A stretch of 64,000 nucleotides of DNA from assembly GCA_964360245.1 (NCBI GenBank), contig CAYHWX010000003.1, positions 2,307 to 66,306 on the forward strand. The letters are read 5' to 3'. The translations under genes and the position numbers were made by a program. This DNA is from an uncultured Vicingus sp. (lineage in GTDB: Bacteria; Bacteroidota; Bacteroidia; Flavobacteriales_E; Vicingaceae). The notes below the pieces were generated by a model. It was given only the letters and a program-made list of their open reading frames with translations, was not told the origin of the DNA and searched no databases. The number at the start of each line of letters is the position of its first letter. Position 1 is the stretch's first letter. Shown piece by piece: positions 23,638 through 63,959 of this stretch.

Positions 23638-23638
23638 A

Positions 23639-31363: not shown

Positions 31364-31383
31364 AATCTATTGTATTAGTTTTT

Positions 31384-31514: not shown

Positions 31515-31567
31515 AAAAATAAAAACACACAAAGAATTGTATATCTGTAATGATTTAATAGAGAATG

Positions 31568-32947: not shown

Positions 32948-33017
32948 TGAGTGTTATTTAAAGTTTTAATATTGTATGATTAGTTGATTTTTAATGATTG
33001 CTAATGAGTTCTTCTTA

Positions 33018-33392: not shown

Positions 33393-33493
33393 ATTGAAAA
33401 AAATGATGATGAATACTAAAGTAAAATCAAAATTACCATAAATAAAAAATAGTTATAAGATTATTAATGAAATAATAGTATCAGATAACTTAT

Positions 33494-33507
33494 TTGATAA
33501 ACATCAT
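33494..33507. promoter_or_regulatory. FNR/Crp-type box TTGATaaacATCAT
   Basis: Ends 60 nt upstream of the ATG of the Crp/Fnr gene at 33567. Confidence 0.45.
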
Positions 33508-33566
33508 AACATTGTATGTTTAAAAATTGTAACTTTGCTAATATTTTTTAAATAGCATTTTTTAAA

Positions 33567-35832: not shown

Positions 35833-35871
35833 AAAATATTTATTAAATAGTTTGTGGTGAATAAAGTAAGC

Positions 35872-35906
35872 TAACAAAAAACTCTAAACCTCGAACTCTA
35901 AACTTT
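35872..35906 (+). repeat. 7-nt-phased (A/G/T)AAC-NNN array (5 units) ending 6 nt before the start codon
   Basis: TAACAAA AAACTCT AAACCTC GAACTCT AAACTTT, with units starting at 35872, 35879, 35886, 35893 and 35900. Confidence 0.8.
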
Positions 35907-35911
35907 ATAAT

Positions 35912-37201: not shown

Positions 37202-37228
37202 TTATTTTAACGACACAAACATTTAACT

Positions 37229-38644: not shown

Positions 38645-38663
38645 TAATTTAATATTTAAAATA

Positions 38664-45380: not shown

Positions 45381-47399
45381 ATGGCTTATCAATTCAAAAA
45401 TTTAAACATCAACAAACTAACTGTTATTGGTGCCGGTCAAATTGGACCAGACATTTGTTTACACTTTGCAAAAGTGTTTGTAAAAAACAATGTTGAATTT
45501 GTAATTATCGATATTTCTCCAGAAGCATTGGCGAATGCTAAGGCAAAAATTGAAAAGAAAATTAGTAAAGGCGTTGAAACAGGAGCTTTTAAAGCCGATG
45601 TGGCTGAAATGATGAACAAAAGTATTACGTATTCATCGGATTACAATTTAATAAAAGGATCTGGAATTGTGTTAGAAGCAGCAACCGAAGATGGCAGAAT
45701 TAAAGACCTTATTTTTAAACAAGTTGAAGCGTTGACAGACGATTCTTGTTTGTTTTTGTCTAATTCTTCACACATGACACCTGAAGTTATTTTTAGAAAC
45801 ATTGCTAACAAAAAAAGATGTTTAGTTACACATTATTTTTTCCCTGCAGATAGAAATCCTATTGTAGAAGTAGTTCCTGGAAAAGATACCAACCCTCAAA
45901 TTACAGCAGACTTAATGGTTTTTTATGAAGTAATTGGTAAAGTGCCTATTGAAGTAAAGAGTTCTTATGGTTATGCAATTGATCCTATTTTTGAAGGATT
46001 GTGTGAATTGGCAGTTCTTTGTTTAGAGAAAGGTTATGGCACCATTAAGGAAATTGATAAAATGGCTCAAAAAAATCTGCGACAAGGTGTTGGACCATTT
46101 ACTGCTTTAAATTTAACTGGTGGTAATCCAATTACTGATCATGGATTAACTGAATTACATGAAACACATATACCATGGTTTAGATCTCCCAAAACTTTAA
46201 AAGAAGCTGTAGCAAATGGAACATTATGGGAAACAGCAAAAAGAGGTGAAGAAGTAGTTGTTGACCCAGCCAAAGCCGAAGTGTTAAGAAAACAGCTTTT
46301 GGGAGGATATTTTGCGTTGACTTGCCATATCCTAGATTTGGGAATAACAAACGTTAATGATTTAGATATGGCAGCAGAAATTGCTTTGGCAATGGCTGCA
46401 CCATTTACATTAATGAATAAAATTGGAATTGACGAAGCTCATGCAATAGTTAAAGAATGGTGCCAAGAACACACAGAATTTCCTTTTCCAAAATCATTAG
46501 ATAAAGCTAGATCTGATGGTGGATGGACAGTTTCAAGAATAGTAGCGAAGAATAAGGAAGGCATTGCTGTATTAACTATTAGAAGACCACAAGTGTTAAA
46601 CGCTTTAAATATTGCTGTATTAAAGGAATTAAAAGTTGAAATAGAAAAAGCAGAAAAAGACACCAACATTAAAGGTATAGTTATAACAGGATTTGGAACA
46701 AAAGCATTTGTTTCTGGAGCCGATATAAACATGTTGGCTGCTTTAAAAACTCCAGAAGAAGGATATAATAATTCTCATACTTTTCAGCAGTTAATAAATA
46801 CTATAGAAGATTGTAAAAAACCAACTGTTTGTGCCTTAAATGGATTTGCTTTTGGCGGTGGAAACGAATTGGCAATTACTTGCACTGCCAGGGTTGCTAA
46901 AAAAGGATTGCCAGTTGTAGCTTGTCAGCCCGAAGCTAACTTAGGGTTTATTCCGGGTTCTGGAGGTACACAGCGTTTACCACGATTAGTTGGGGTTGAT
47001 ATTGCTGCAGAAATACTTCGAACAGCTCGCCCAGTATCTGGAAAAGAGGCTCTAGAAATAGGTTTAATTGATCTAGAAATTGAAGGAGACTTAATTGAAG
47101 GTGCCGTTGAATACACTAAAAAATTAATAAAAGGTGAAATTCAACCTCGCAAATTCGTAACTACTGGAACCAAAGAGAGTTTATCACCAAAAGAAATTAA
47201 TATCGGTCATTTGAGTAAAAAAATTGACCACATCATGAATAAAGCGATTTACGACGGAATTAAACTTCCATTAAACGAGGCGTTGGAGTTGGAATCAAAA
47301 CTTTTTGGCGAATGTATTTTAACCGATGACATGAAAATTGGCTTGAATAATTTTTTAACCAACGGACCAAGAGCTAAAGCAGAATTTAAACATAAATAG
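45381..47399 (+). CDS. bifunctional 3-hydroxyacyl-CoA dehydrogenase (N-terminal) / enoyl-CoA hydratase (C-terminal)
   Basis: N-terminal Rossmann LTVIGAGQIGPDI. C-terminal crotonase motifs FVSGADI and NGFAFGGGNELA. The domain order is reversed relative to FadB. Confidence 0.8.
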   Translation: MAYQFKNLNINKLTVIGAGQIGPDICLHFAKVFVKNNVEFVIIDISPEALANAKAKIEKKISKGVETGAFKADVAEMMNKSITYSSDYNLIKGSGIVLEAATEDGRIKDLIFKQVEALTDDSCLFLSNSSHMTPEVIFRNIANKKRCLVTHYFFPADRNPIVEVVPGKDTNPQITADLMVFYEVIGKVPIEVKSSYGYAIDPIFEGLCELAVLCLEKGYGTIKEIDKMAQKNLRQGVGPFTALNLTGGNPITDHGLTELHETHIPWFRSPKTLKEAVANGTLWETAKRGEEVVVDPAKAEVLRKQLLGGYFALTCHILDLGITNVNDLDMAAEIALAMAAPFTLMNKIGIDEAHAIVKEWCQEHTEFPFPKSLDKARSDGGWTVSRIVAKNKEGIAVLTIRRPQVLNALNIAVLKELKVEIEKAEKDTNIKGIVITGFGTKAFVSGADINMLAALKTPEEGYNNSHTFQQLINTIEDCKKPTVCALNGFAFGGGNELAITCTARVAKKGLPVVACQPEANLGFIPGSGGTQRLPRLVGVDIAAEILRTARPVSGKEALEIGLIDLEIEGDLIEGAVEYTKKLIKGEIQPRKFVTTGTKESLSPKEINIGHLSKKIDHIMNKAIYDGIKLPLNEALELESKLFGECILTDDMKIGLNNFLTNGPRAKAEFKHK

Positions 47400-47528: not shown

Positions 47529-49685
47529 ATGAAATACAAAATTGGCATAGATGTAGGAGGAACCTTTACCGACTTTTTTTTAGTCGCTGATAATGGGGAT
47601 TCGTTAATTCATAAAACGCTTTCTACCCCTCAAGATTCTTCAGAAGGATTTATTACCGGGTTAAAGGAAATGGCAGAGAAGCTAAATTTGCCGGTTGCTG
47701 AGTTTATTGACAACATCGATACCATTGTTCATGGAACTACTGTGGCCACCAATGCATTATTGACGTTAGGCGGAGCAAAAACTGCTTTAATTACCACTAA
47801 AGGGTTTAGAGATGCGTTAGAAATGCGAAGAGGTATTCGCGAAGAACGATATGATAATCATTACAAAAACGTAACACCTTTAGTTCCCAGATATTTACGA
47901 TACACAATAAATGAAAGAGTTGATGCGATTGGAACTATTTTACACTCAATTGATTTTACTGAATTAGATGCTATCGTTTCAAAAATAAAAGAGGAAGACG
48001 TAAAAGCAGTTGCCATCTGTTTTATGAATTCTTATTTGAACAGTGAAAATGAAAAAATAGCCACTGAATATCTTAGAAAAGCATTACCAAACACTTATAT
48101 TTCTGCATCTTATGAAGTTTTGCCATCTGTTCGTTTTTACGAAAGGGTTAGTACTACCGTAGTAAATGCATACATTGGTGTAGTAGTAGATTCCTATTTA
48201 AAATCATTATTAGCAAAACTCAAAAAACTCAATTTCAACGGTAAATTGATGATTATGCAATCGAACGGAGGCGTTGTAACTCCCGAAATTGCAGGTAAAA
48301 TTGCTGCCGTAGCCGTTCTTTCCGGTCCTGCTGCTGCACCTATTGCTGGTGCATATTATGCCAATTTATTGGGATATGATAATTGCATTACCATGGATAT
48401 GGGAGGCACCAGTTTTGATGCTTCTTTGGTGGTAAACAAACAGTGTGTTACCAGTACCTATGCCGATATTGATAGATACCGAGTGGCATTACCCACATTA
48501 GATATTATTACCATTGGTGCAGGTGGAGGAAGTATTGGATGGGTGGACAATGGAGGATTATTGCAAATGGGACCCAAAAGTGCAGGTTCTTTACCCGGAC
48601 CAATTTCATACCATAGAGGTGGTGAAAAACCTACTTGTACTGATGCTGATTTAATACTTGGATATCTAGACCCCAATTTTTTTGCCGGAGGTAAGTATAA
48701 ACTGAACAAAGAAAAAACAATAGAAGTAACAGAAAAAAGCCTAGGAAAAAATCTTGGTTTAAATGCTGTAGAAGTTGCTGCAGGAATGTACCGTGTCATC
48801 AACATGAACATGGCTCAAGGTGTTCGTCAGGTTTCGGTAGAAAGAGGTTACGACCCAAGAGAATTTTTAATGATTTGTGCAGGAGGAGCAGGTTCAATTC
48901 ATGCAGGTGAAATTTGTCGTGAGTTAGAAATACCAATGTTTGTTGTTCCAAGTGTAGCACCAATTTTTTGTGCAGCGGGCATGTTGTTAGGCGATTTAAA
49001 ACACGATTATGTTCGGTCGTACATGACAAAATTCTCTGGTTTAGATAAAGTTGCTTTCTTGAAATTGTACGATGAAATGAAAGCTGAATCTGTCAAAACA
49101 TTGATTGCTGAAGGAATTACAGAAGATAAAATCCAATTTATACCATCATTAGATTTAAGGTACATTGGTCAATACCACGAAGTTCCTTTAGAAGTTTCGA
49201 TGGACGATGTTTATGGTTTTAATCTGGAAGCCATAAAAAATGCGTTCCATAAAGAACACAGTCGTCAATTTGGTTATGATTTAAAAGTAGAAGGCACAGA
49301 ATTAGAAGTCATTAACATTCGATTTAGGGCAGTTGGCATAACTGAAAAACCACATTCATTATCTGGGAACATCACAAAAGGAGCTAATACATTACAAGAA
49401 GCTTTGAAAGGAAGAAGAATGGCTTATGTACCCGAAAAAAATGAAATGCAGGAAGTTCCTGTTTACGATGGTGACATCTTAAACAGCAATTTTAAAATAA
49501 ATGGGCCAGCCATTATCGAACAAGTAAATACCACTGTTTTTTTAGGCGAAAACTATAACTGCGAAACAGGAATTGGAGGTGCATTTATTGTTTATAACAA
49601 AATTTTAATGCCTGATGGGTTTAAAAAGTTTAAAGTTTCGAGTTCAGAGTTAAAGAAACTCGAAACTTTAAACACGAAACTCTAA
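47529..49685 (+). CDS. hydantoinase/oxoprolinase family protein, A-type (HyuA-like)
   Basis: N-terminus KIGIDVGGTFTDFF and the internal motif MDMGGTSFD. 718 aa. Confidence 0.85.
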   Translation: MKYKIGIDVGGTFTDFFLVADNGDSLIHKTLSTPQDSSEGFITGLKEMAEKLNLPVAEFIDNIDTIVHGTTVATNALLTLGGAKTALITTKGFRDALEMRRGIREERYDNHYKNVTPLVPRYLRYTINERVDAIGTILHSIDFTELDAIVSKIKEEDVKAVAICFMNSYLNSENEKIATEYLRKALPNTYISASYEVLPSVRFYERVSTTVVNAYIGVVVDSYLKSLLAKLKKLNFNGKLMIMQSNGGVVTPEIAGKIAAVAVLSGPAAAPIAGAYYANLLGYDNCITMDMGGTSFDASLVVNKQCVTSTYADIDRYRVALPTLDIITIGAGGGSIGWVDNGGLLQMGPKSAGSLPGPISYHRGGEKPTCTDADLILGYLDPNFFAGGKYKLNKEKTIEVTEKSLGKNLGLNAVEVAAGMYRVINMNMAQGVRQVSVERGYDPREFLMICAGGAGSIHAGEICRELEIPMFVVPSVAPIFCAAGMLLGDLKHDYVRSYMTKFSGLDKVAFLKLYDEMKAESVKTLIAEGITEDKIQFIPSLDLRYIGQYHEVPLEVSMDDVYGFNLEAIKNAFHKEHSRQFGYDLKVEGTELEVINIRFRAVGITEKPHSLSGNITKGANTLQEALKGRRMAYVPEKNEMQEVPVYDGDILNSNFKINGPAIIEQVNTTVFLGENYNCETGIGGAFIVYNKILMPDGFKKFKVSSSELKKLETLNTKL
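49628..49673 (+). repeat. perfect 17-bp inverted repeat (hairpin) at the 3' end of the HyuA-like gene
   Basis: GTTTAAAGTTTCGAGTT (49628-49644) is the exact reverse complement of AACTCGAAACTTTAAAC (49657-49673). The loop is 12 nt. Confidence 0.9.
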
Positions 49686-49696
49686 ACTAAAAACTG
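49656..49696 (+). repeat. 7-nt-phased AAAC-NNN array (6 units) running into the next start codon
   Basis: AAACTCG AAACTTT AAACACG AAACTCT AAACTAA AAACTG, then the ATG at 49697. Confidence 0.85.
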
Positions 49697-51373
49697 ATGA
49701 TAAAAATTGATAAAATATTATTGAGCATCTTTCAACGAGCGTTTAAATCGATAACCGATGAAATGAGTATTTCATTAACAAAAACGACACGCTCACCAAT
49801 TTTGTGCGAAGCAAAAGATTTCGTTACAGGATTATATGATGCTGAAGGAAATATGTTGGAACAAACCGAGAACCTTCCAATTTTGAGTTTTTCATTAGGA
49901 CCCGTTTGTAAAGTTATTTTAGACCAATACGGCGAAAATATTTTCGAAGGAGATGTTATTATTCACAACGATGTATTCTCTATGGGCAATCAAAATAACG
50001 ATGTGGCTATTTTCAAACCCATTTTTTGTGAAGGAACATTAATCGGTTGGTCGGCTGCAAAAGGTCACCAAGCAGATATTGGTGGGGCTGTTCAGGGAGG
50101 ATACAATCCAAATGCCACAGAAGTTTGGCAAGAAGCTTTAAGAATTCCAGCTGTTAAATTATATGAAAAAGGAAAATTTAGGGAAGATGTTTGGAACTTG
50201 ATTTTCGCCAACATAAGGCTAACCATGGTTCAGGAAGATATTAAAGCACAAATTGGAGCTTGTAGTTTAGGCGAAAGAAGGCTAAATGCATTAGTTAGTA
50301 AATACGGAATAGCTTGTTACAAAGCTCACAAAAAAGAACTTTTTAACAGCACCGAAACCATGATGCGAGCAGAAATTGCTTCAGTACCCAACGGAAAATA
50401 CGAAGGCAGTAGCATGGTTTATTACGACGGAAAACATCCGGGTTCAACCTTTGAAATAAAAGCCATCATCACTGTTAAAGATGAAGAAATTATTTTTGAT
50501 TTTTCTGAAAGTTCTCCTCAAACCAATGGCTTTGTAAATGGAACTTATACATCTTCTTGCTCAGCAATTACCTTAACATTTTTGCAAATGGTTAATCCCA
50601 ACATTCCTCATAATCAAGGTATGATTCGACCACTAACGTATATCGTGCCCGAAGGAACTATTTTAAATGCTTCCTATCCTAAAGCAACAACTTTTGGAAA
50701 TCACTTATGTCCACAAGTTGCCGATTCAATTTTTAAAGCATTGGGTCCTGCCATGCCAGGGAGAGTTACTGCCGGTTGGAATCATTTATTATGTTCGTTG
50801 TTTACTGGCGACCATCCTAGAACCAAAGAGAAATATGTTGACATCTGTTTTATGGGATTAAAAGGAGGTTCCGGAGCTTTATCAGGAGATGATGGTTACG
50901 ACCATATTGGTATGATTGACGCTTCCGGCGGGTTATTAGACCAAGATTATGAAATGTATGAACAACAAACTCCACATTTAATTTTAAAACACGAATACCT
51001 CACCAATTCAGGAGGTGTAGGAAAATGGAGAGGAGGATTAGGGATTGAAACCGTTATAAAAATGGGTGGAGATAATACAAAAATGGTAGTGTTTGGCGAT
51101 GGCGATGTAGAACCAAATTATGGTCTTTTTGGAGGAAAAGGAAGTGTTTTAAACAGCATCACATTAACTTATCCTGATGGAAAAAATCACATTCCAAAAA
51201 GTAAAGATATCGTTGAAGGAATTCCTGACGGTACAATATATAAACAGGTTGCAGGTGGTGGTGGTGGATACGGAAACCCTAAGGAAAGAGATAGAGCAGC
51301 TGTGAAATGGGATTTAAGAAATGAAGTGATTACAAAAGAACAAGCGATTAATGAATATGGATTATTGAAATAG
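49697..51373 (+). CDS. hydantoinase B/oxoprolinase family protein (HyuB-like)
   Basis: FQRAFKSITDEMSISLTKTTRSPILCEAKDF is typical of HyuB N-termini. 558 aa, paired with the A-type gene. Confidence 0.85.
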   Translation: MIKIDKILLSIFQRAFKSITDEMSISLTKTTRSPILCEAKDFVTGLYDAEGNMLEQTENLPILSFSLGPVCKVILDQYGENIFEGDVIIHNDVFSMGNQNNDVAIFKPIFCEGTLIGWSAAKGHQADIGGAVQGGYNPNATEVWQEALRIPAVKLYEKGKFREDVWNLIFANIRLTMVQEDIKAQIGACSLGERRLNALVSKYGIACYKAHKKELFNSTETMMRAEIASVPNGKYEGSSMVYYDGKHPGSTFEIKAIITVKDEEIIFDFSESSPQTNGFVNGTYTSSCSAITLTFLQMVNPNIPHNQGMIRPLTYIVPEGTILNASYPKATTFGNHLCPQVADSIFKALGPAMPGRVTAGWNHLLCSLFTGDHPRTKEKYVDICFMGLKGGSGALSGDDGYDHIGMIDASGGLLDQDYEMYEQQTPHLILKHEYLTNSGGVGKWRGGLGIETVIKMGGDNTKMVVFGDGDVEPNYGLFGGKGSVLNSITLTYPDGKNHIPKSKDIVEGIPDGTIYKQVAGGGGGYGNPKERDRAAVKWDLRNEVITKEQAINEYGLLK

Positions 51374-51413
51374 AACACAGGTGCAGATGATTATAATTAA
51401 ATATGAAAATTTT

Positions 51414-53005: not shown

Positions 53006-53410
53006 ATGAATACACACGAAACAATATTACCCGAAGGTTGGTCAACTCCTAAAGGATATGCGAATGGAATATTAGCTGCAAAAGGAAGAACGTTGTTTTT
53101 AGCCGGACAAGTTGGATGGTCTCCCGAAGAGAAATTTGCAAGTGAGAAATTGGTTCCTCAATTTGAACAAGCGTTAAAAAATATTGTTGCTATTGTTGAA
53201 AAAGCAGGAGGAAAACCTACAGACATCTGCAAAATGACCTGTTTCTGTAAAGATAGAACTCAATATTTAGCAACTAGAAGTGAGCTTGGTACAATATGGA
53301 AAAATATTATGGGAAAACATTATCCATGCATGAGTATGATTTTCGTAGTGGATTTACTAGACCATCCGGCATTAATAGAAATCGAAGCAACAGCAGTTAT
53401 TGCTGATTAG
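53006..53410 (+). CDS. RidA/YjgF/UK114 family protein
   Basis: 134 aa with YANGILAAKGRTLFLAGQVG and C-terminal LIEIEATAV. Confidence 0.75.
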   Translation: MNTHETILPEGWSTPKGYANGILAAKGRTLFLAGQVGWSPEEKFASEKLVPQFEQALKNIVAIVEKAGGKPTDICKMTCFCKDRTQYLATRSELGTIWKNIMGKHYPCMSMIFVVDLLDHPALIEIEATAVIAD

Positions 53411-53496: not shown

Positions 53497-54624
53497 ATGG
53501 ATTTTGAATTAAACGACATACAAAAATCAGTACAACAAACCTTCAAGGACTTTGTTGATAGAAGAGTTATGCCTCAAGCAGCAGCTATTGATGAAAATGC
53601 TGAATTTCCACTCAAACTTTTTAAAGAAGTGGGTGATTTAGGCTTTTTCGGAATGCGTTATCCAGAAAATGCTGGTGGCACAAATATGGATATTCTTTCC
53701 TACTGTTTAGCAGTGATAGAACTTTCTCGGGGATCTATGTCGCTTGCAGCAGCATGTACCATGCAATCGTTAATGGCAACTTATTTTTTATTTCGATTTG
53801 GTGATGATGAGGTTAAAAAACATTTTGAAGCTGCTTTAAAAGGAGAAGAAATTGGTGCAATTTGTATGACCGAGCCAAATGCTGGTAGTGATTTATTTGC
53901 CATTCAAACAAAAGCATTGGTTAAAGATGACCACTTTTTGTTGACTGGACAAAAAACTTGGGTTACATCTGCACCGGTTGCCAACTTTTTTACCGTTTTG
54001 GCAAAAACAGATAACCATGATAAATTGTCCATCTTTTTTGTTCCTTCAAATTTTAAAGGAGTTACAGTAGGTAAAAAAATCAACAAATTAGGTGCTTGTG
54101 GTTCGGTTACCAGTGAAGTTGCTTTTGATAATGTTAGCTTACCAAAAAATTATTTATTAGGAGAAATTGGTGGCGGTACCAATTGTTTAATGGAAATATT
54201 AGCAGAAATTAGAATAATGACAGCAGCACTTTCGATTGGAGTTGCAACAGCAGCTTTCGAAGATGCACTAAAATATGCCAAAGAACGTGTTCAGTTTGGA
54301 AAACCAATTGGAAAATTTCAAGCGATACAAATGAAGTTTGCTGACATGGAAGTTCAATTACAAACGGCAAAACATTATGTGTTTTATGCAGCTTATTTAA
54401 GCGATAAAAACTTGCCAAGACACAAAGAATCAATGATCGCAAAATTGTATGCATCGGAATGTGCCAACTCCATTTGCGACCAAGCCTCAAGAGTTTTAGC
54501 ATCTTATGGCTACGCAACTGAATATTCGTTGCAAAGATACTTGCGTGACGCTCGATTTACTTTGATTGGCGGAGGAACATCCGAAATTTTAAAAAATAAC
54601 ATTGCTAAAGAATTAGGGCTATGA
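53497..54624 (+). CDS. acyl-CoA dehydrogenase
   Basis: CMTEPNAGSD, the overall ACAD length (375 aa) and the C-terminal IGGGTSEILKNNIAKELGL. Confidence 0.85.
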   Translation: MDFELNDIQKSVQQTFKDFVDRRVMPQAAAIDENAEFPLKLFKEVGDLGFFGMRYPENAGGTNMDILSYCLAVIELSRGSMSLAAACTMQSLMATYFLFRFGDDEVKKHFEAALKGEEIGAICMTEPNAGSDLFAIQTKALVKDDHFLLTGQKTWVTSAPVANFFTVLAKTDNHDKLSIFFVPSNFKGVTVGKKINKLGACGSVTSEVAFDNVSLPKNYLLGEIGGGTNCLMEILAEIRIMTAALSIGVATAAFEDALKYAKERVQFGKPIGKFQAIQMKFADMEVQLQTAKHYVFYAAYLSDKNLPRHKESMIAKLYASECANSICDQASRVLASYGYATEYSLQRYLRDARFTLIGGGTSEILKNNIAKELGL

Positions 54625-55745
54625 AAATTGAACAAAAAGAGAATCAACTTATTATGAATGGTTCTGAATTGATAATAGAATCATTAGCTAGGTCTGGTGC
54701 AGACGTTTTTATCGGTTACCCTATTACACCTGCAAACCTTCTATATTCTTATTCAAAAGAACGCTTCCCTTCTTTTTTTGCAGCACCTGATGAAATTTCT
54801 ACACTTCAATGGATGTGTGGTTTTTCAACTACTGGGAAATTTCCTGTAACTGCTACATCATTTCCAGGTTTTGCCTTAATGATTGAATCGATAAACATGG
54901 CATATATGATGGAATTGCCCATGTTAATCGTTCTCGTTCAGAGACTTGGACCAGCAACTGGCAGTGCGACATGTGGTGCACAAGGTGATTTAGCTATGCT
55001 TACTGGTGCAATATCTGGTGGATTTTCTCTGCCAGTTATTAGTGTAAGTAACATGAAAGATTGTTGGGATTTATCAAACAAAGCAATGAAAATGGCTATT
55101 GATTTGAGAACTCCAGTTGTTTTACTTACTTCCAAAGAAGAAATAATGACGCTATCAAGTTTTGCTATTTCACAACTTCAAGAACTAACAATTATTGAAC
55201 GAAAACAGTATTCTTCTACTGAAATATTTGTGCCATATAAAATTAATAAATCACTTGTTCCTGAATTTTTACCTGTGGGCGATACAAAACATCAAGTTCG
55301 ATTTACTGCATCAACACATGATCAAAAAGGAATTATTCAAAACACTTCAAAAGAAGCAATTGAAAATACTAAACGATTAGAACTCAAACATCTTCTCAAC
55401 CTCGAAAATCATTTATATTACGAATACGATGCTCAAACTGGTGCAGATACACTTTTAATTTCATATGGAATCACAGCTTCATCTGGTAGAGAAGCAGTTA
55501 GAAATTTAAGAGAAAAAGGTGAAAAAATTTCACATTTAATACCAAAAACCTTGTTGCCAGTTCCTCCTATCTATTTTGATATTATGGATAAATATAAAAA
55601 CATAGTGATTGCCGAAGAAAACCTTTCTGGTCAATATAAAAAGATTTTGTTTGGAGAATTTGGGAATAAAAAAGTTTGTGGTGTTAATGGAATTGCAGAA
55701 ATGATTACTCCATCAAAAATAATGGAAGAAATTTTAGCTAAATAA
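54621..55745 (+). CDS. 2-oxoacid:ferredoxin oxidoreductase alpha subunit (KorA/OorA-like, without gamma domain)
   Basis: NGSELIIESLARSGADVFIGYPITPAN...FPGFALM...GPATGSAT. The start overlaps the ACAD stop (ATGA). Confidence 0.75.
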   Translation: MKIEQKENQLIMNGSELIIESLARSGADVFIGYPITPANLLYSYSKERFPSFFAAPDEISTLQWMCGFSTTGKFPVTATSFPGFALMIESINMAYMMELPMLIVLVQRLGPATGSATCGAQGDLAMLTGAISGGFSLPVISVSNMKDCWDLSNKAMKMAIDLRTPVVLLTSKEEIMTLSSFAISQLQELTIIERKQYSSTEIFVPYKINKSLVPEFLPVGDTKHQVRFTASTHDQKGIIQNTSKEAIENTKRLELKHLLNLENHLYYEYDAQTGADTLLISYGITASSGREAVRNLREKGEKISHLIPKTLLPVPPIYFDIMDKYKNIVIAEENLSGQYKKILFGEFGNKKVCGVNGIAEMITPSKIMEEILAK

Positions 55746-55765
55746 TTTGATTTATTACTGTGGAA

Positions 55766-57094
55766 ATGGAAAAAGAAAAGAAAAGTTTTTTAACAGACGA
55801 AAGCTTACCCTTCTGTAAAGGATGTGGTCACAATCATATTGCAGCTAATACTGAAAAGGCATTACAACTTTTAGGATATGACCCATTAAATGTTGTTTTG
55901 GTTACTGACATTGGTTGTCATGGAATTATTGATAAATCTTTTGTAACTCACACTGTTCACGGACTTCATGGGCGTTCGGTAGCACTTGCATCAGGTGTTT
56001 CTGCAGCTTTAAATAGCCCCGATAAAAAAGTAATTGTATTTATTGGTGATGGTGGAGCAACAATAGGTATGCAACATTTGATTGATGCTGCTCATAATGG
56101 ATTTAACATGACTGTTGTCGTACATAATAATTTTCTTTATGGAATGACTGGTGGACAACCAAGCGAATTTACTCCGTTTGGATTTAAAACTCCAACAATG
56201 CCTGAAGGTGGTGAAAAACAAGGTTATGATATTTGTAAATTAATTGAAGCCGTAGATGGTGCTTCCTACATATCTCGCATCGAAGGTGTTTCTGATTTTT
56301 CTAAACAATTGGCTGAAGCATTTTCAAAAAAAGGTTTTTCACTAGTAGAAGTAATGGAAATATGTCCGAGTTATGGCGTAAAATCCAATCCGGGTATGAG
56401 ACTTTCTAAAGTAGTAGAACAAGCTGGCCTTACAATAAATAAGTTTGTTGATAGAGATGTTGATTTTTATAAGACAAAAATTAAAAAAGAACTCAAACCT
56501 CTTTTCAACGAAAACGATGCAATCAAAACTTTATTTCCAGTTAAATTAGAAAAACCAATCCGTTTAATGTTATGTGGTTCTGCTGGCGAAGGTGTTCAAT
56601 CGGCTGCAGAATTGTTGTTAAAAGCTGGAATGACTTCAGGTTTGAATGGCACAAAAAAAGGAAGTTACCCCGTAACTGTTGGTGTTGGTTTTTCAGCTGC
56701 AGAAATTATTCTTTCTTCTGACGAAATTCTTTATACTGGTTCGCCAAGTCCTGATGTGATTTGCATAACATCTTCTGATGGTTTAGAATATGCACGAAAA
56801 ACTCTTGTAAACATGATCGACGGAATAGTTTATATAGATAGCTCTTTAAAATTGCCTGAAACAAATGCTAAAGTAATTTCATTCCCTTTTCGAGAAAGAG
56901 GAGGAGCTAAAAGTGCTTCTATTTACTGTATTTTCTACTTATTGATGAAGTCAGAAATGTTTTCTATGGACGCACTACTTAAGGTGTTTAATGAAAATAA
57001 AATTTCAAAAAAGATTGATCAAGAGAAAATGTTTCAACTATTAAACGAAACTTCGACAGATAATTTGAATGATAACAAAAAGGTAATACTATAA
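55766..57094 (+). CDS. 2-oxoacid:ferredoxin oxidoreductase beta subunit fused to a gamma-like C-terminal domain
   Basis: N-terminal CKGCGH and the TPP motif GDGGATIGMQHL...NN..YGMTGGQ. Residues from about 255 to 444 resemble the gamma (PorG-type) domain (LMLCGSAGEGVQSAAELL). Confidence 0.7.
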   Translation: MEKEKKSFLTDESLPFCKGCGHNHIAANTEKALQLLGYDPLNVVLVTDIGCHGIIDKSFVTHTVHGLHGRSVALASGVSAALNSPDKKVIVFIGDGGATIGMQHLIDAAHNGFNMTVVVHNNFLYGMTGGQPSEFTPFGFKTPTMPEGGEKQGYDICKLIEAVDGASYISRIEGVSDFSKQLAEAFSKKGFSLVEVMEICPSYGVKSNPGMRLSKVVEQAGLTINKFVDRDVDFYKTKIKKELKPLFNENDAIKTLFPVKLEKPIRLMLCGSAGEGVQSAAELLLKAGMTSGLNGTKKGSYPVTVGVGFSAAEIILSSDEILYTGSPSPDVICITSSDGLEYARKTLVNMIDGIVYIDSSLKLPETNAKVISFPFRERGGAKSASIYCIFYLLMKSEMFSMDALLKVFNENKISKKIDQEKMFQLLNETSTDNLNDNKKVIL

Positions 57095-57097: not shown

Positions 57098-58498
57098 ATG
57101 AGTCAGTTAAAATCATACGGAATTGCTTTGCCTCATTTTAGGATTGAGGACGCCATTCTTCACCCAAAAGGAAAGAAAAGTATTACTAAATCAGTTTGTT
57201 TCGCTGATGAAGATTTGATTACACTTGCTTTTCAGGCAGCAGCAAACTTGAAACTTGAAACATTAAACTCTAAACCGGATGGTGTCCTATTTGCAACATC
57301 AACTTCAGTTTTTACCAACCGCTATCATGCTTCTTTTTTAGCAGATTTATTAAATCTTCCGCAGGGAATTTTAGCTCTTGATTTTACCAACTCAACTCGT
57401 AGTGGAACTGATGCCTTTTTATTGGCAAATACCTTGATTGATTCTGGAAAATACAAAAACATATTAGTTGTAGCTGCTGATGTTCATTTTCCTGCTATCG
57501 GAAAAGAACTTTCGACTACTTTCGGTCATGCTGCTTGTGCAATATTATTAAGCAATGAAAAAGGGATTGCAGAAATTACAGAAGCAAAATCTTACAGTTC
57601 TTCACTGGCTGAAGAGTTTTCTTACAAAGGAAATAATATTCAATACGACCCACGATTTAGTCGTGATGCAGGGTTTAAAACCAATTTGACTTCTTCACTA
57701 AAAGATTTTATTACCAATCCAAAACAGTATGATGCAGTCATTCTAAATTCACTTTATGCTCGAATGGCAGGAGGAATATTTGCAAAAGCAGGTTTTGAAG
57801 AAACACAATTTGCAAAAGATACACTCTCGTCTAAAATTGGAAATACAGGTGCTGCTCATGCATTGTTGTTACTCATTAATGAATTGGAATCAACTCCCTT
57901 CCCGAAGGGAAGGATCGGGGATGGGCTTATTTTGTTAGCTGATTACACCAATGGAACAAACTTTTTTGAAATTAAAACTCATGAAACTAATCATGAAAAA
58001 ACATTACAGAATCAATTAAAAAACAACGAATTAATTCAAACCTATCAGGATTATTTATTGTTACGTAAAGCTGGAAATTTCAAATCAGCAAAATACAAAA
58101 CCAAAGAAATGTTCTCATCAGAAATGATGCAAGAGCGTGAAAAAGACACTTTACAATATTTGAAAGGATTAAAATGTGATGAATGCGGAACAATATATTA
58201 TTTAAAATCGACTCGTTGTAAAAAATGTAAAGCCGATAAATTCTCAGAAGTTCAATTATCATCGACAGGAACTGTATATACCTTAACAAGCGAACATTAT
58301 TTTCCGAGTTCATTTCCTCCAATTCACATGTTGGTAATTGATTTGGATGGCGGTGGAAGGGTTACTGTTCAGCAAACGGACACGATGTATCCAGAAAACA
58401 ATAAAATTGAAATCGGCTCAAAAGTGAAACTAGTATTACGAAAAATGATTGAAAACGACGAAAAACCAAATTATTTCTGGAAAGCAATACCATTATGA
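57098..58498 (+). CDS. HMG-CoA-synthase-like thiolase-fold domain fused to a DUF35 (Zn-ribbon + OB-fold) domain
   Basis: The N-terminal roughly 330 aa align by eye to archaeal-type HMGCS (SYGIALPHFRI, ADEDLITLAFQAA, IGNTGAAHALLLL). The C-terminus has CDECGTIYYLKSTRCKKC plus an OB-like segment. Confidence 0.6.
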   Translation: MSQLKSYGIALPHFRIEDAILHPKGKKSITKSVCFADEDLITLAFQAAANLKLETLNSKPDGVLFATSTSVFTNRYHASFLADLLNLPQGILALDFTNSTRSGTDAFLLANTLIDSGKYKNILVVAADVHFPAIGKELSTTFGHAACAILLSNEKGIAEITEAKSYSSSLAEEFSYKGNNIQYDPRFSRDAGFKTNLTSSLKDFITNPKQYDAVILNSLYARMAGGIFAKAGFEETQFAKDTLSSKIGNTGAAHALLLLINELESTPFPKGRIGDGLILLADYTNGTNFFEIKTHETNHEKTLQNQLKNNELIQTYQDYLLLRKAGNFKSAKYKTKEMFSSEMMQEREKDTLQYLKGLKCDECGTIYYLKSTRCKKCKADKFSEVQLSSTGTVYTLTSEHYFPSSFPPIHMLVIDLDGGGRVTVQQTDTMYPENNKIEIGSKVKLVLRKMIENDEKPNYFWKAIPL

Positions 58499-59682
58499 AA
58501 AGACAAAACGACATAGCAATAATAGGCATAGGTGTTACCAAGTTTGGTGAACTTTTTCATCAAAGTTACGATGATTTAGTTCGTGATGCAGCAAAACAAG
58601 CGGTAACTGATGCTAAAATTTCAATGGATGAAATTGGTGCGGCTTGGCTTTCAACTGCATTTCCAGAGATTGGCGTTTTTAAAGGCAGAAGTGGAATGGA
58701 TTTGTCTGAGCCACTTTCTTTGTACAATATTCCTGTAACACGAGTTTCCAATTTTTGTGCGTCAGGGGCTGATGCAATTCGAAACGCAGTTAATGCTCTA
58801 CGTGCTGGCGAATGTGATGTGGCAATGGCTTTAGGAGTTGAAAAACTTCGTGATCGTCAACCACAAGATAGTATCGTTAAAATGATGGTTGAATACGGAC
58901 ATCCATTTTTGCAAAAAGGGTTTACTGCAGCAGGCACATTTGCTGTTTATGCTAACCGAATGATGAAAGAATATGGTTTAACACGGGAAGATATTTCAAA
59001 TGTTTCTGTAAAAAATCACTTGCATGGTGCTATGAATGAAAAAGCATTTTATCGTAAACCTTGCTCTTTAGAAGAAGTCATGAAATCGCCAATGGTTGCC
59101 GACCCACTTACTGTTTTGGATAGTTGTCCGACAACTGATGGTGCTGCTTGTGTAATAATGGTTCGTGCAGAAGATGTGGATAAAACAAAACATCATCCAA
59201 TTTATATTGACGGAATAGGCTTGTCAGTTTCTACAGGTTGGGATTTACCTTTTTTCGACCCCAACCACGATTTTCTTTCTTTTGAAGCAACACGTAATGC
59301 AGCAAAAATGGCTTATCAACAGGCTGGAATTACCAAACCAATTGATGAAATTGATTTGGTAGAAGTGCATGACTGTTTTTCAATAGTCGAATTGTTGACT
59401 TATGAAGATTTGGGTTTATGTAAATCAGGCGAATCGAAAGACATGATACGAGGAAAAGCAACTCATTTAGGAGAACAAATTCCTGTAAACGTGAGTGGAG
59501 GGTTGCTTTCTTGTGGGCATCCAGTTGGTTCAACGGGAATAAGAATGGTGGTTGAAATTGCCAATCACCTTCGTGGAACAGCTGGTGAACGCCAAGTAAA
59601 AGGTGCAAAAAGAGGTCTGTCTCACAATATTGGTGGTCCAGGAGCAATTGCTTCTGTGATTGTCTTAAATAATGAAAATTAA
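58495..59682 (+). CDS. thiolase (SCP-x/archaeal acetoacetyl-CoA thiolase-like)
   Basis: VSNFCASGADAIRNA (active-site Cys) and C-terminal HDCF, SGGLLSCGHPVGSTG. The start overlaps the upstream stop (ATGA). Confidence 0.85.
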   Translation: MKRQNDIAIIGIGVTKFGELFHQSYDDLVRDAAKQAVTDAKISMDEIGAAWLSTAFPEIGVFKGRSGMDLSEPLSLYNIPVTRVSNFCASGADAIRNAVNALRAGECDVAMALGVEKLRDRQPQDSIVKMMVEYGHPFLQKGFTAAGTFAVYANRMMKEYGLTREDISNVSVKNHLHGAMNEKAFYRKPCSLEEVMKSPMVADPLTVLDSCPTTDGAACVIMVRAEDVDKTKHHPIYIDGIGLSVSTGWDLPFFDPNHDFLSFEATRNAAKMAYQQAGITKPIDEIDLVEVHDCFSIVELLTYEDLGLCKSGESKDMIRGKATHLGEQIPVNVSGGLLSCGHPVGSTGIRMVVEIANHLRGTAGERQVKGAKRGLSHNIGGPGAIASVIVLNNEN

Positions 59683-60704: not shown

Positions 60705-61082
60705 ATGAAAGTATTATTAAGTAAACCTGGATTAGACGGACACGATGTAGGAGTTAAAGTTCTTGCACATGGCTTAATTGAAGCCGATTTTGAAGTAGTT
60801 TATACTGGATTGAGAAAAACCATTGATGAAATCGTGCAAATGGCAATAGAAAATAAAGTAGATGTCATTGGACTGTCTATTCTTTCAGGAACACATTTAT
60901 TTCTTGCTCAGAAAATGAAAGAAGTAATGGATGCAAATAAACTAGATATTCCTTGGTTTGTTGGAGGAAATGTCCCACCTCTAGACGTTGCAAAATTGGA
61001 AAAAATTGGTGCTTCAAAAGCTTTCGCAACAAGCACAAAAGTGGTTGATGTAGTTAATTATTTTAAAGAAATGAAAAAGTGA
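60705..61082 (+). CDS. B12-binding small subunit of an acyl-CoA mutase
   Basis: 125 aa with the DxHxxG motif (GLDGHDVGVKVL) and the Rossmann-like cobalamin-binding fold pattern. Confidence 0.8.
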   Translation: MKVLLSKPGLDGHDVGVKVLAHGLIEADFEVVYTGLRKTIDEIVQMAIENKVDVIGLSILSGTHLFLAQKMKEVMDANKLDIPWFVGGNVPPLDVAKLEKIGASKAFATSTKVVDVVNYFKEMKK

Positions 61083-61087
61083 AGGTG

Positions 61088-61135
61088 AAATCAGTAACTC
61101 TAAACTAGTAACTCCAAACACGAAACTCTAAAAAA
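61088..61135 (+). repeat. 7-nt-phased (A/T)AAC-NNN array (7 units) ending at the mutase large-subunit start codon
   Basis: AAATCAG TAACTCT AAACTAG TAACTCC AAACACG AAACTCT AAAAAA. It shares the 17-mer AAACACGAAACTCTAAA with 49670-49686. Confidence 0.85.
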
Positions 61136-62761
61136 ATGAATACAAAAAATAAAATAAAACATACCGCCGAAGATTTAGGGGTAAAGAAAGTTTACCTTGA
61201 ATCGGGCATTGAAGTAAATCCTATTTATACTGCTGAAGATGTAGAAAACTCGAACAGCAAACACGAAATGCCAGGCGAATACCCTTTTACAAGAGGAATT
61301 CATAACACCATGTATCGTAAAAGACCTTTTACTATTCGTCAGTATGCTGGATTTGCATCTCCGGAAGAAACTAATGAACGTTTTCAATTTTTAATTGCCA
61401 ACGGACAATCAGGGTTAAATGTTGCTTTCGATTTACCAACACAATGTGGATTGGATTCTGATGACCCAAGAGCGATGGGTGAGGTTGGTCGTGTTGGAAT
61501 GACCGTTGACACGCTCGATGATTTTGAAATTGCTTTTAAGAATATTGATTTAGATAAGATTACAGTTTCATTAACTATCAACGGTTCTGCAATTATTGCT
61601 ATTGCTATGTATATTGCGATGGCAGAAAAAGCTGGTTATGACATTAGTAAATTAAGAGGAACGGCTCAAAATGATATTTTAAAAGAGTTTATTGGTCGTG
61701 GAACTTGGATTTTTCCAGTTGACAAATCAGTAAAATTGGTTGTTGATACCATAGAATATTGTGCTCAACATGTTCCAAAATATAGTCCGGTAAGTGTTTG
61801 TGGATATCACATTAGAGAAAGTGGAGCTAACCCCATTCAAGAAATGGCGTATGCATTTTGTATCGCAAAAGCATATACCGATGGAGCATTAAGTAGAGGA
61901 ATTGATATTGATGATTTTGCATCTCGACTATCATTTAACTTCGATATTTATGGAAATTTATTTGAGCAAATTGCCAAGTTTAGAGGCGGAAGAAGATTGT
62001 GGGCAAAAATAATTCGCGAAGAATATTTAGCCAAAAATGATGATTCGTGTTGGTTAAGAATGATTGCCGGAGGTGGCGGTGGTGGTTTAACCAAAGAACA
62101 ACCAGAAAACAACATTGTAAGAAGTGCTTATTATGCCTTAATAAGTGCGTTGTCTGGAACTCAAACGATGGCATTGTGTAGTTATGATGAAGCCTACACC
62201 ATTCCCACAGAACACTCTGCAGAAATCTCCTTAAGAACCATGCAAATTATGATTCACGAAATGGGAATTTGCGATACCGTTGACCCACTTGGCGGTTCTT
62301 ATTATGTGGAAGCATTAACCGACAAATTTGAAGAAGAAATTAAAAAAGAAATGAAAATGGTGGATAAATGGGGCGGAATTGTGAATGCTGTTGCAACTGG
62401 AAAAATTCAAGAATCTGTTTCTAAACAAGCTTACACACGAGAAATGGGAATGCAAACCGGGAAAGTGGATAAAGTAGGTGTAAATATTTTTACCAGAGAA
62501 GAAGAAAGTAAACCCGTTGAATTCCATCCTTATAATCAGGAAGCTGCCGACAAGCAAGTAGAAAAATTAAAACGAATTAAAGCATCAAGAAACAATGAAT
62601 TGGTAAAACAAAAATTAGATACCATCAGAAAAGATGCAAAAGAAGATAAAAACCTTATGCCTTCAATTATTGAAGCAGTAAAAGAATATGCAACAGTTGG
62701 TGAGATTGTTCAAGTAATGAAAGATGTTTATGGTGAATTTAAAGAGCCTATCTTTTTTTAA
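61136..62761 (+). CDS. acyl-CoA mutase large (catalytic TIM-barrel) subunit, methylmalonyl-CoA mutase family
   Basis: PFTRGIHNTMYRKRPFTIRQYAGF...GQSGLNVAFDLPTQCGLDSD...AQNDILKEFIGRGTWIFP. Substrate specificity is not callable by eye. Confidence 0.85.
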   Translation: MNTKNKIKHTAEDLGVKKVYLESGIEVNPIYTAEDVENSNSKHEMPGEYPFTRGIHNTMYRKRPFTIRQYAGFASPEETNERFQFLIANGQSGLNVAFDLPTQCGLDSDDPRAMGEVGRVGMTVDTLDDFEIAFKNIDLDKITVSLTINGSAIIAIAMYIAMAEKAGYDISKLRGTAQNDILKEFIGRGTWIFPVDKSVKLVVDTIEYCAQHVPKYSPVSVCGYHIRESGANPIQEMAYAFCIAKAYTDGALSRGIDIDDFASRLSFNFDIYGNLFEQIAKFRGGRRLWAKIIREEYLAKNDDSCWLRMIAGGGGGGLTKEQPENNIVRSAYYALISALSGTQTMALCSYDEAYTIPTEHSAEISLRTMQIMIHEMGICDTVDPLGGSYYVEALTDKFEEEIKKEMKMVDKWGGIVNAVATGKIQESVSKQAYTREMGMQTGKVDKVGVNIFTREEESKPVEFHPYNQEAADKQVEKLKRIKASRNNELVKQKLDTIRKDAKEDKNLMPSIIEAVKEYATVGEIVQVMKDVYGEFKEPIFF

Positions 62762-62765
62762 GAAC

Positions 62766-63959
62766 ATGAAAAAACAAAAAATCATATTATCCCTCGAACA
62801 AGCACTTGCATTACCTTATGCAACACAACGTTTTGTACAATTAGGTTGGCGTGTAATTCGTATTGAATCCCCTGCAGAAGATGGCGAAAACGCTGGAGAC
62901 CCAAACCGATACATTGGTGCCGATTTAGGTTTTAGCGATTTACATTCATATTATATTGCACCAAATACTGGTAAAGAAGCCATCACCATTAATCTGAAAA
63001 AAAAGGAAGGACAAGAGTTACTTAAAAAATTAATTAAGGAATTGGATGTTGATGTATTTATGTGCAACACCTTGCCCAAACGCTACAAACAACTAGGCAT
63101 CGATTATGAAACATTAAAAGAAGCAAACCCTGATATTATTTGGTGCAGTATTTCTGCAATGGGTCCGGAATATCCGGAAAGAGCAGGTTATGACCCCGCT
63201 TTACAAGCCATGATGGGTTTTACTTACCTTACCGGAGAACCTAACGGCTTACCTGTTCCTTGCGGCATCCCAATCATTGATTTAAAGGCTGGTGATGAAG
63301 CTTTTACTCAAGTGGTTCTTGCAATGTTGGAGAGTAATACCAACAAGGAAATTCACATTTCAATGGCACAATGTGCGGCAAGTTGGTTGATAACCGCTTT
63401 ACCACAATTAGCATTTGTAAAAAACGAAAGTGAATTATTTACTCGCAGTGGAAATGAGCACCGAAGTTTTATCCCTTGCAACGCATATCCCACAAAAGAT
63501 GGTTATCTCTATTTAGCCATAGGTAACGATTTGCAATGGCACAAATTTGTTTCTCACAAAGGGTTTGAAAAACTTTTTTCGGAAAATCGTAAAACAAACG
63601 AGGGAAGGATGAAGGAAAAAGAAAACATTTATAAAGAAATAGGAGAATTAAGTAAAAACTATAGCACCAAAGAATTTTTCGAGTTATGCATTTCCTTAAA
63701 TCTATCAGCAGCTCCCGTAAATACTGTTAAAGAAGTCGCTTTATTGCCATTTGTTGATGTTTGTATGATGAAAACAACAATTCCGAACGGTAAAGAAGTG
63801 AAACTTTCTCCTCCATCATACAATACAGCATTTCTTGAAAAAAATAATTTTTCGTTGAATTGTCCACCACGATTAGGAGAACAAAACAATAAAGTATATC
63901 AACAAATTGGAATTACCGAAAAGGAAATAGAAAAAATGGTAGCCGAAAAAATAATTTAA
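62766..63959 (+). CDS. family III CoA-transferase (CaiB/BaiF/Frc type)
   Basis: ALPYATQRFVQLGWRVIRIESPAEDGENAGDPNR. The ATG at 62766 avoids the overlap created by the track start 62724. Confidence 0.8.
   Translation: MKKQKIILSLEQALALPYATQRFVQLGWRVIRIESPAEDGENAGDPNRYIGADLGFSDLHSYYIAPNTGKEAITINLKKKEGQELLKKLIKELDVDVFMCNTLPKRYKQLGIDYETLKEANPDIIWCSISAMGPEYPERAGYDPALQAMMGFTYLTGEPNGLPVPCGIPIIDLKAGDEAFTQVVLAMLESNTNKEIHISMAQCAASWLITALPQLAFVKNESELFTRSGNEHRSFIPCNAYPTKDGYLYLAIGNDLQWHKFVSHKGFEKLFSENRKTNEGRMKEKENIYKEIGELSKNYSTKEFFELCISLNLSAAPVNTVKEVALLPFVDVCMMKTTIPNGKEVKLSPPSYNTAFLEKNNFSLNCPPRLGEQNNKVYQQIGITEKEIEKMVAEKII

Follow-up and report, generated by a model that had tools for sequence, protein, structure and literature searches.

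The stretch of DNA analysed here (the window) comprises 64,000 nucleotides from an uncultured Vicingus sp. of the Bacteroidota (family Vicingaceae; assembly GCA_964360245.1, contig CAYHWX010000003.1, positions 2,307 to 66,306 of the forward strand), whose genome is 97.75% complete. At 57098..58498 on the + strand it carries a gene for a 466-aa protein in which a domain with the fold of 3-hydroxy-3-methylglutaryl-CoA (HMG-CoA) synthase (HMGS) and KAS III (aa 1-290; 57098-57967) is joined by a linker (aa 291-352; 57968-58153) to a DUF35 zinc ribbon and OB fold (aa 353-466; 58154-58495). We refer to this protein as the fusion. Three bases separate the stop codon of the preceding oxidoreductase gene from its ATG, and at the other end its TGA (58496-58498) overlaps the ATG (58495-58497) of the gene for a 395-aa SCP2-type thiolase (58495..59682, +) in a 4-nt ATGA. 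The sequence at this junction is ...CCATTATGAAAAGA, which reads CCA TTA TGA AAA around the overlap.

The fusion gene was delimited from its open reading frame (ORF) and from Pfam, NCBIfam, PDB, AlphaFold and Foldseek results. Over aa ~1-300 the protein matches archaeal HMGS (NCBIfam PRK04262, E=2.3e-28) at a score far below the model cut-off, and the best archaeal and bacterial HMGS models give 99.2, 57.2 and 42.2 bits for cut-offs of 244, 353 and 360. Pfam places ACP_syn_III at aa 95-163, a ChsH2-type zinc ribbon (PF12172) at aa 353-382 with 22.2 bits, just short of the 23.2 required, and the DUF35 OB fold (PF01796) at aa 384-447 with 33.1 bits, above cut-off. The C-terminus also has an NCBIfam match to BbsA. 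The zinc-ribbon cysteines C360, C363, C374 and C377 (58175..58228, +), within the partial PF12172 match, are invariant among 129 aligned fusions. An AlphaFold model built on 129 sequences has a pLDDT of 94.9 and a pTM of 0.94. When this model was submitted to Foldseek, the HMGS chains of the archaeal complex (6et9_I/6esq_I) ranked first, with a TM score of 0.79-0.80 over the target, followed by 9skh, 5mg5_A/5m3k_A (PhlA) and 9vbo (MucA). A PDB search with a profile made from 21 fusion-family members returned PhlA-type chains as the best matches to the N domain (9skh_A, 2.2e-24; 5m3k_A, 1.5e-22) and then MucA (9vbo_A) and the HMGS of M. thermolithotrophicus (6esq_I, 6.8e-13). DUF35 chains from these complexes match too, the DUF35 part of the fusion aligning to 6esq_E. 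An initial annotation, made from the letters of the DNA, had described the N-terminal part as resembling archaeal HMGS and the C-terminal part as a DUF35 zinc ribbon and OB domain, and both descriptions agree with these profile and structure matches.

The catalytic positions were placed by a family-profile alignment to 6esq_I. The catalytic Glu (Glu82) in the 'GSES' segment of that chain falls on Ser68 (codon 57299..57301), the catalytic Cys (Cys114) in 'FACKAGT' on Thr100 (57395..57397), the His in 'VFHQP' on Asn217 (57746..57748) and the Asn in 'LGNT' on Asn249, all codons being on the + strand. Three of the four residues of the HMGS E-C-H-N tetrad, nucleophile and general base included, are lost. 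The Glu position is S, T, N or A in the family. At the former Cys position T, A, Y, S, L, P, V, N or D is found in the close family and mostly Leu across the wider fused family; such free variation is not compatible with the role of a nucleophile. The adjoining Arg101 is more than 90% conserved. The initial annotation, aligning by eye, had put Thr, Thr and Asn at the Glu, Cys and His positions and had proposed an alignment with HMGS as a check. The profile alignment bears out the absence of the triad, the choice of all three segments, Thr100 and Asn217, and corrects the Glu position by a register of one residue, to Ser68, which is flanked by Thr67 and Thr69. In one subclade of the family (P0083, P0088 and P0108) the tetrad His is still present (…ILHSPY…) and Glu and Cys are gone, a pattern suggestive of an active HMG-CoA synthase having decayed step by step.

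The thiolase matches Pfam Thiolase_N and Thiolase_C_1 and exceeds the cut-off of NCBIfam PRK06157 (406.9 bits for a cut-off of 403). Its motifs are intact: Cys88, H292-D293-C294-F295 and G341-H342-P343. In PDB alignments it is closest to the archaeal thiolase 6esq_A (1e-57) and to BbsB (1.4e-49); these and the SCP2-thiolases are all closer to it than PhlC (7e-27). The earlier description of a fusion stop codon overlapping the start of an SCP-x-type thiolase with its active-site Cys is therefore upheld by the ATGA junction and by Cys88. A thiolase gene lies directly 3′ of the fusion in every related locus with enough downstream sequence, and the thiolase is the more conserved of the two proteins at every locus compared (for example 79-84% against 47-55% identity in the distant half). 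Metatranscriptome contigs from aquifer and sediment, identical or nearly identical to the window, fall on both genes at a depth of 2-5, and a relative's contig (58361-58550) bridges the junction. As contigs of low depth, and with DNA carry-over possible, they are no more than a weak hint that the fusion and the thiolase are expressed.

Close relatives of the fusion (47-90% identity) come only from metagenome-assembled genomes (MAGs) of uncultured Bacteroidota, recovered from groundwater, boreal and meromictic lakes, permafrost and hydrothermal sediment. In the window's own Vicingaceae-like family 11 of 87 genomes carry it. It is found in none of 400 evenly drawn Bacteroidota genomes and is thus an accessory trait. 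An exhaustive profile search gave 262 cluster representatives at E < 1e-30. The best 150 of these are nearly all full-length fusions of ~470 aa, and in almost all of the 138 that we aligned the residues at the positions of Glu, Cys and His are degenerate. Compared with eight orthologues, the fusion has dN/dS values of 0.10-0.25 in the N domain and 0.05-0.09 in DUF35, so that the dead N domain is under purifying selection. Together with the conservation pattern of the thiolase, this fits a constrained but probably non-catalytic partner.

The wider fusion family occurs on catabolic megaplasmids of Rhodococcus, Sphingobium, Novosphingobium, Azoarcus, Variovorax and haloarchaea. In both plasmids that we opened, a fusion followed directly by an 'acetyl-CoA acetyltransferase' lies inside a beta-oxidation-type cluster: the two-gene module occupies 8968-11639 of pAZKH from Azoarcus sp. 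KH32C and 9001-11644 of pDK3 from Rhodococcus sp. DK180, and its neighbours include enoyl-CoA hydratases, MaoC dehydratases, electron transfer flavoproteins, short-chain dehydrogenases/reductases and CoA-transferases. The Azoarcus thiolase is 40% and the Azoarcus fusion 23% identical to the corresponding protein of the window. The plasmid records name the fusion merely 'OB-fold domain-containing protein' or 'KAS III C-terminal domain protein'; homologues go under 'hydroxymethylglutaryl-CoA synthase' at JGI and in some NCBI records.

An architecture of this kind has been studied before. PhlA, which lacks Cys and Glu, was shown in 2018 to be a non-catalytic subunit (PMC6392133). Liao et al. (Nat Commun 2026;17:2196, PMC12960953) mined 1,030 bacterial loci with co-localised HMGS, ACAT (acetyl-CoA acetyltransferase) and DUF35 domains, 1,001 of which have no secondary-metabolite genes nearby. 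The P. fluorescens locus that they describe encodes a fused HMGS-DUF35 protein without the E-C-H-N tetrad and an ACAT with Cys, HDxF and GHx. The complex, when assayed, made neither HMG-CoA nor acetoacetyl-CoA and cleaved acetoacetyl-CoA thiolytically, an activity that is abolished by mutating the HDxF His of the ACAT. The same study reports that a mutated archaeal enzyme likewise makes no HMG-CoA and that HDxF is lost in PhlC and MucB, and proposes that the dead bacterial complexes are evolutionary intermediates 'not yet recruited' (PMC12960953).

Likened to the P. fluorescens system by its published description, the window's pair shows all the sequence-level features given there: HMGS and DUF35 in one polypeptide, loss of the catalytic residues, an adjoining SCP2/ACAT-type thiolase with Cys, HDxF and GHx, and no polyketide synthase or nonribosomal peptide synthetase (PKS/NRPS) genes as neighbours. 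The Bacteroidota fusions differ as a clade. They form a divergent subfamily with ~23-30% identity to proteobacterial and actinobacterial fusions, have Thr or a variable residue at the former Cys site where those have mostly Leu, and keep the tetrad Asn. In contrast to the P. fluorescens system, the Bacteroidota pair also belongs to a tightly conserved catabolic operon, described below as iaa-like and linked to a benzoyl-CoA reductase (BCR), which argues for a dedicated catabolic role and against the 'not yet recruited' view.

The other relatives share parts of this design. The archaeal thiolase/HMGS/DUF35 complex has the same three modules, provides the best Foldseek match, and its thiolase carries the Cys, HDCF and GH motifs (6esq_A, 1e-57). 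The window's HMGS domain differs in having lost Glu, Cys and His and in being fused to DUF35, in a genome without the mevalonate pathway; the expected direction here would be thiolysis, as opposed to the coupled condensation of the archaeal complex. Searches of the window's genome for HMG-CoA reductase (PF00368) and HMG_CoA_synt_C gave no match, and the fusion is its only DUF35 protein. PhlACB of P. protegens and MucABC of Streptococcus also combine a catalytically dead HMGS-fold partner with a DUF35 that bridges to a thiolase-fold catalytic subunit, but they consist of three separate proteins, and their thiolase subunit lacks HDxF and transfers acetyl groups to small-molecule acceptors. BbsAB, the benzoylsuccinyl-CoA thiolase of the anaerobic toluene pathway (PDB 7PXP), pairs a DUF35 zinc-ribbon subunit with an SCP2-type HDxF thiolase, matches the window's proteins (BbsB 1.4e-49, BbsA 4.7e-6) and acts, within anaerobic aromatic degradation, on a 3-oxoacyl-CoA of the aroyl type, which it cleaves. 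It differs by having no HMGS-fold component, by its bbs operon context and by its substrate.

From its sequence and by analogy with these systems, the fusion is very probably a dead HMGS fold plus DUF35 whose role is structural and non-catalytic, as partner of the thiolase from the overlapping gene. The initial annotation had suggested a non-catalytic scaffold for the adjoining thiolase, and the loss of three tetrad residues, the variable former Cys position, purifying selection, the complete thiolase and the P. fluorescens precedent all support that suggestion. The two proteins would form a complex like the archaeal thiolase/HMGS/DUF35 complex, PhlACB, MucABC and above all the P. fluorescens ACAT/HMGS-DUF35. 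All chemistry would reside in the thiolase, which through Cys88, the Cys and His of HDCF, and His342 would carry out CoA-dependent thiolytic cleavage of a 3-oxoacyl-CoA. The architecture is already known and is not new; what the window adds is a pathway context.

This context is provided by the surrounding genes, all on the + strand, whose synteny was examined by tblastn of the window's proteins against 47 related loci. The order is conserved in ~45 Bacteroidota MAG loci: a fused 3-hydroxyacyl-CoA dehydrogenase/enoyl-CoA hydratase (HCDH/ECH), HydA, HydB, RidA, an acyl-CoA dehydrogenase (ACAD), optionally the alpha and beta-gamma subunits of a 2-oxoacid:ferredoxin oxidoreductase (OFOR), the fusion, the thiolase, optionally an outer-membrane-like ORF, the small and large subunits of a mutase, and a family III CoA-transferase. 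HCDH/ECH (45381..47399; Pfam 3HCDH_N and ECH_1) is syntenic, as is the hydantoinase/oxoprolinase A and B pair (47529..51373; Pfam), found in ~40 loci. The NCBIfam models nearest to this HydAB pair are those of the ATP-dependent caprolactamase CapA/CapB, which opens lactams (658 bits for CapA and 392 for CapB, both below cut-off). The RidA-family protein (53006..53410; PF01042) is likewise syntenic in ~40 loci. In the ACAD (53497..54624; C-terminus ...FTLIGGGTSEIL) the active-site motif is GGG and not YEG. The two-gene OFOR (54621..57094; Pfam, NCBIfam) lies between the ACAD and the fusion in ~9 of the 47 loci, with 73-83% identity, and is elsewhere absent or represented by a distant copy at another site; it could supply indoleacetyl-CoA from indolepyruvate.

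Downstream of the thiolase lies a split B12-dependent acyl-CoA mutase (60705..62761; small subunit 60705-61082, large subunit 61136-62761; Pfam, NCBIfam). The best PDB match of its large subunit is HcmA (4r3u_A, 1e-143). Alignments to 1req_A, 2xij_A and 4r3u_A show the Tyr of 'RQYAGF' and the Arg of 'IGRGTW' in its active site, as in methylmalonyl-CoA mutase (MCM), where HcmA has Ile and Gln. With this MCM-type pair the substrate should carry a free carboxylate. Naming the enzyme by similarity would mislead, and from its active-site residues it may be a phenylsuccinyl/benzylmalonyl-CoA mutase like IaaGH. A route through 2-hydroxyisobutyryl-CoA mutase and acetone, raised by the HcmA match, was rejected on account of the same Tyr and Arg. 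Directly downstream of the mutase is the family III CoA-transferase (62724..63959; PF02515, E=1.2e-59), which is syntenic in most loci.

Two further genes lie within this series. Between HydB and RidA the window encodes a secreted 531-aa repeat protein (51381-52976), its C-terminal tail being type IX secretion-like. None of the 47 related loci has it at this position, which suggests that it entered the operon recently. The other (59694-60677), a 327-aa ORF situated between thiolase and mutase, has a signal peptide and no Pfam match, and counterparts with 58-84% identity occur in just eight related loci. Its product may serve the substrate as an outer-membrane channel.

The gene content resembles that of the iaa pathway, which leads from the thioester indoleacetyl-CoA through the phenylsuccinyl-CoA transferase IaaL (family III), the B12 mutase IaaGH and IaaF to beta-oxidation (Schuhle et al. 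2021, PMC8360864). The carbon skeleton is rearranged by IaaGH, IaaF is a decarboxylating benzylmalonyl-CoA dehydrogenase, and the end product is 2-aminobenzoyl-CoA. All enzymes of the IaaF subclass have GGG for the YEG motif, and all are encoded in iaa operons (PMC8360864). The C-terminus of the window's ACAD (...RFTLIGGGTSEIL) has this motif within LIGGGTSEI(L), and GGG is found in 42 of 42 ACAD orthologues from related loci. Since GGG in place of YEG is specific to the IaaF subclass, the ACAD is of IaaF type. As in iaa operons, the same operon also encodes a family III CoA-transferase and a B12 mutase whose expected substrate is a carboxylated acyl-CoA. An earlier candidate, beta-oxidation from a lactam to a dicarboxylate (caprolactam or valerolactam, from the CapAB-like HydAB), was superseded by this iaa-type reading once the GGG motif of the ACAD was considered. 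In a search of plasmids for a named IaaF orthologue only generic ACADs were found, at no more than 40% identity. The iaa operon of Aromatoleum aromaticum and A. evansii has in common with the window's operon the GGG ACAD, an IaaGH-like mutase, an IaaL-like CoA-transferase, the beta-oxidation steps and the link to a benzoyl-CoA reductase. The host phylum, Bacteroidota, differs and is not among the hosts named by Schuhle et al. (PMC8360864).

On this reading the pathway would start from tryptophan-derived indolepyruvate, through the optional OFOR, or from indoleacetate, through an ADP-forming synthetase encoded upstream, either of which would give indoleacetyl-CoA. After oxidation to the oxindole, HydAB would open the lactam to a (2-aminophenyl)succinyl thioester, which the CoA-transferase and the mutase would convert to (2-aminobenzyl)malonyl-CoA. 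The GGG-motif ACAD would then give 2-aminocinnamoyl-CoA and HCDH/ECH the 3-oxo thioester. Finally the thiolase, complexed with the dead HMGS-DUF35 protein, would release acetyl-CoA and 2-aminobenzoyl-CoA, the latter being destined for the BCR-type reductase. The pair thus probably makes the last carbon-carbon cut of an operon for the oxygen-free breakdown of auxin or tryptophan in this bacterium, which comes from groundwater. Because the other genes of the operon match the iaa pathway, the most likely substrate of the thiolase is 3-oxo-3-(2-aminophenyl)propionyl-CoA (2-aminobenzoylacetyl-CoA), an identification that we hold to be slightly better than even. The 'unusual 3-oxoacyl-CoA' of the initial annotation would then be an aroylacetyl-CoA, a guess made from the gene context.

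A class I benzoyl-CoA-reductase-type cluster is located at 34648-39518, ~20 kb upstream of the fusion. Of 38 operon-bearing genomes from across Bacteroidota, 32 also encode a close homologue (69-96% identity) of BcrB, the reductase subunit found upstream in the window. Within the window's family, BcrB occurs in nine of the 11 fusion-bearing genomes and in 13 of the 76 others, and the two fusion-bearing genomes without it are 79% and 89% complete. We regard this co-occurrence as a strong association and not as a statistic, related genomes not being independent samples. The classical lower pathway of benzoyl-CoA degradation was also considered and set aside: the window's genome has no match to Dch, Had, Oah or BadI above the curated cut-offs. 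If the substrate of the reductase is 2-aminobenzoyl-CoA, enamine hydrolysis, possibly aided by RidA, could give a 6-oxo intermediate directly, although this is speculation. Further upstream, 11478-25282 and 28738-34274 hold genes for a fused CcoNO cbb3 oxidase, FixG, NarGH(J)I, two NarK-like transporters of the major facilitator superfamily and three Crp/Fnr-type regulators. These genes together indicate a nitrate-respiring, microaerobic lifestyle; NarGHI, the NarK-type transporters, the cbb3 oxidase and the Crp/Fnr regulators fit a facultative anaerobe that respires nitrate, which is how the iaa-carrying Aromatoleum strains live.

Several observations weigh against the scaffold and iaa-type readings. 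The fourth residue of the tetrad is kept, as Asn249, and the N domain has many polar residues that are invariant in the family (R75-Y76-H77, D95, D105, H144, K177, R186, R189 and D282-Y283-N285). To judge from this conservation they may have a role beyond that of a scaffold, for example in binding CoA or substrate. A physical complex of fusion and thiolase and its thiolytic activity are projected by analogy from the P. fluorescens assays, the only system in which they are known. The genome has three other, canonical thiolases, which raises the question of a division of labour. The Aromatoleum iaa operon was likened to the window's from the published pathway description, the thiolase step included. 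The hydantoinase step in the reference iaa pathway is reportedly described in a paper of 2012. No enzyme that would form the oxindole from the indole was identified in the conserved operon core. Lastly, the activating enzyme encoded upstream is of the ADP-forming acyl-CoA synthetase type, which together with the optional OFOR takes the place where IaaB, described as a CoA ligase, would act. Having considered these points, we judge the explanation as a whole, a scaffold plus thiolase in an iaa-type pathway, to be likely.

Four other explanations were weighed. The strongest of them keeps the architecture and places the pair in the lower benzoyl-CoA pathway, where it would cleave 3-oxopimelyl-CoA to glutaryl-CoA and acetyl-CoA, or acetoacetyl-CoA, or both, and where the ACAD would be a glutaryl-CoA dehydrogenase. 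The BCR-type cluster ~20 kb upstream and the co-occurrence of BcrB with the operon speak for it, and HCDH/ECH, ACAD and thiolase are the steps needed after 3-hydroxypimelyl-CoA. The second-best NCBIfam match of the ACAD is glutaryl-CoA dehydrogenase (275 bits, below cut-off), and the sole assayed relative of the pair cleaves acetoacetyl-CoA (PMC12960953). A glutaryl-CoA dehydrogenase, however, needs the catalytic Glu of YEG, and in the ACAD that motif is replaced by the IaaF-specific GGG; there would be no explanation for the conserved HydAB, for a B12 mutase that binds a carboxylate or for the CoA-transferase; and 13 of the 22 BcrB-bearing genomes of the family lack the operon, which is thus not core to benzoyl-CoA degradation. 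We consider this assignment unlikely, if worth keeping in mind. Much less probable is a ring-opening thiolase that would act on a cyclic alpha-branched 3-oxoacyl-CoA of the 2-oxocyclohexane-1-carbonyl-CoA type and so replace Oah or BadI. SCP2-type, DUF35-associated thiolases such as BbsAB do handle alpha-branched 3-oxoacyl-CoAs, and a nearly complete genome that has a BCR-type reductase yet no recognisable Dch, Had, Oah or BadI would be accounted for. Thiolytic ring opening is nevertheless without precedent, four generic crotonases in the genome could supply the hydrolase, and the iaa-type reading explains more of the operon.

The remaining two concern the chemistry of the pair itself. In the PDB, no sequences match the N domain better than PhlA-type chains (9skh_A and 5m3k_A), and the three-part composition is the same, so the pair could be pictured as a Friedel-Crafts C-acyltransferase like PhlACB or MucABC, either CoA-independent or acetyl-CoA-dependent, with a phenolic or enolic acceptor. 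Against this, HDCF, a motif lost from PhlC and MucB, is intact in the thiolase, which resembles archaeal ACAT and BbsB far more than PhlC, no PKS/NRPS genes are nearby, and the neighbours are all enzymes of CoA-ester catabolism; we rate this alternative a shade below ring opening. A genuine HMG-CoA synthase, or another condensing enzyme with non-canonical residues, is what the 'hydroxymethylglutaryl-CoA synthase' labels of homologues imply, and the retention of Asn249, and of the His in a few relatives, agrees with it. This view is close to refuted: the nucleophile position is Thr and varies in the family, the genome lacks HMG-CoA reductase, the HMGS scores of 99, 57 and 42 bits fall far short of cut-offs of 244-360, and neither the mutated archaeal enzyme nor the P. 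fluorescens homologue makes HMG-CoA (PMC12960953).

Returning to the scaffold and the iaa-type pathway, we offer an extension with some reserve, giving it rather less than an even chance. Complexes of dead HMGS and DUF35 may be no left-overs 'not yet recruited' but a class of thiolases at work in catabolism and specialised for bulky 3-oxoacyl-CoAs of the aroyl type, here 2-aminobenzoylacetyl-CoA of a Bacteroidota version of the anaerobic auxin/tryptophan pathway. In such complexes strongly conserved residues of the dead pocket (R75-Y76-H77, D95, R101, H144, K177, R186 and R189) would line a shared CoA/aryl chamber that the thiolase needs for activity. The operon is in any case a natural system for asking what a dead HMGS domain contributes to thiolase function.

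The analysis corrects a recurring misannotation, by which homologues are publicly named 'HMG-CoA synthase' or 'OB-fold protein', and assigns to one of the ~1,000 orphan bacterial HMGS-ACAT-DUF35 loci a physiological role and a substrate that are concrete and can be tested. The pathway context is a more useful result than the architecture. The presence of a conserved iaa-like operon together with a class I benzoyl-CoA reductase in nitrate-respiring, uncultured Bacteroidota of groundwater and lakes suggests that this phylum takes part in the anoxic turnover of auxin, tryptophan and aromatic compounds.

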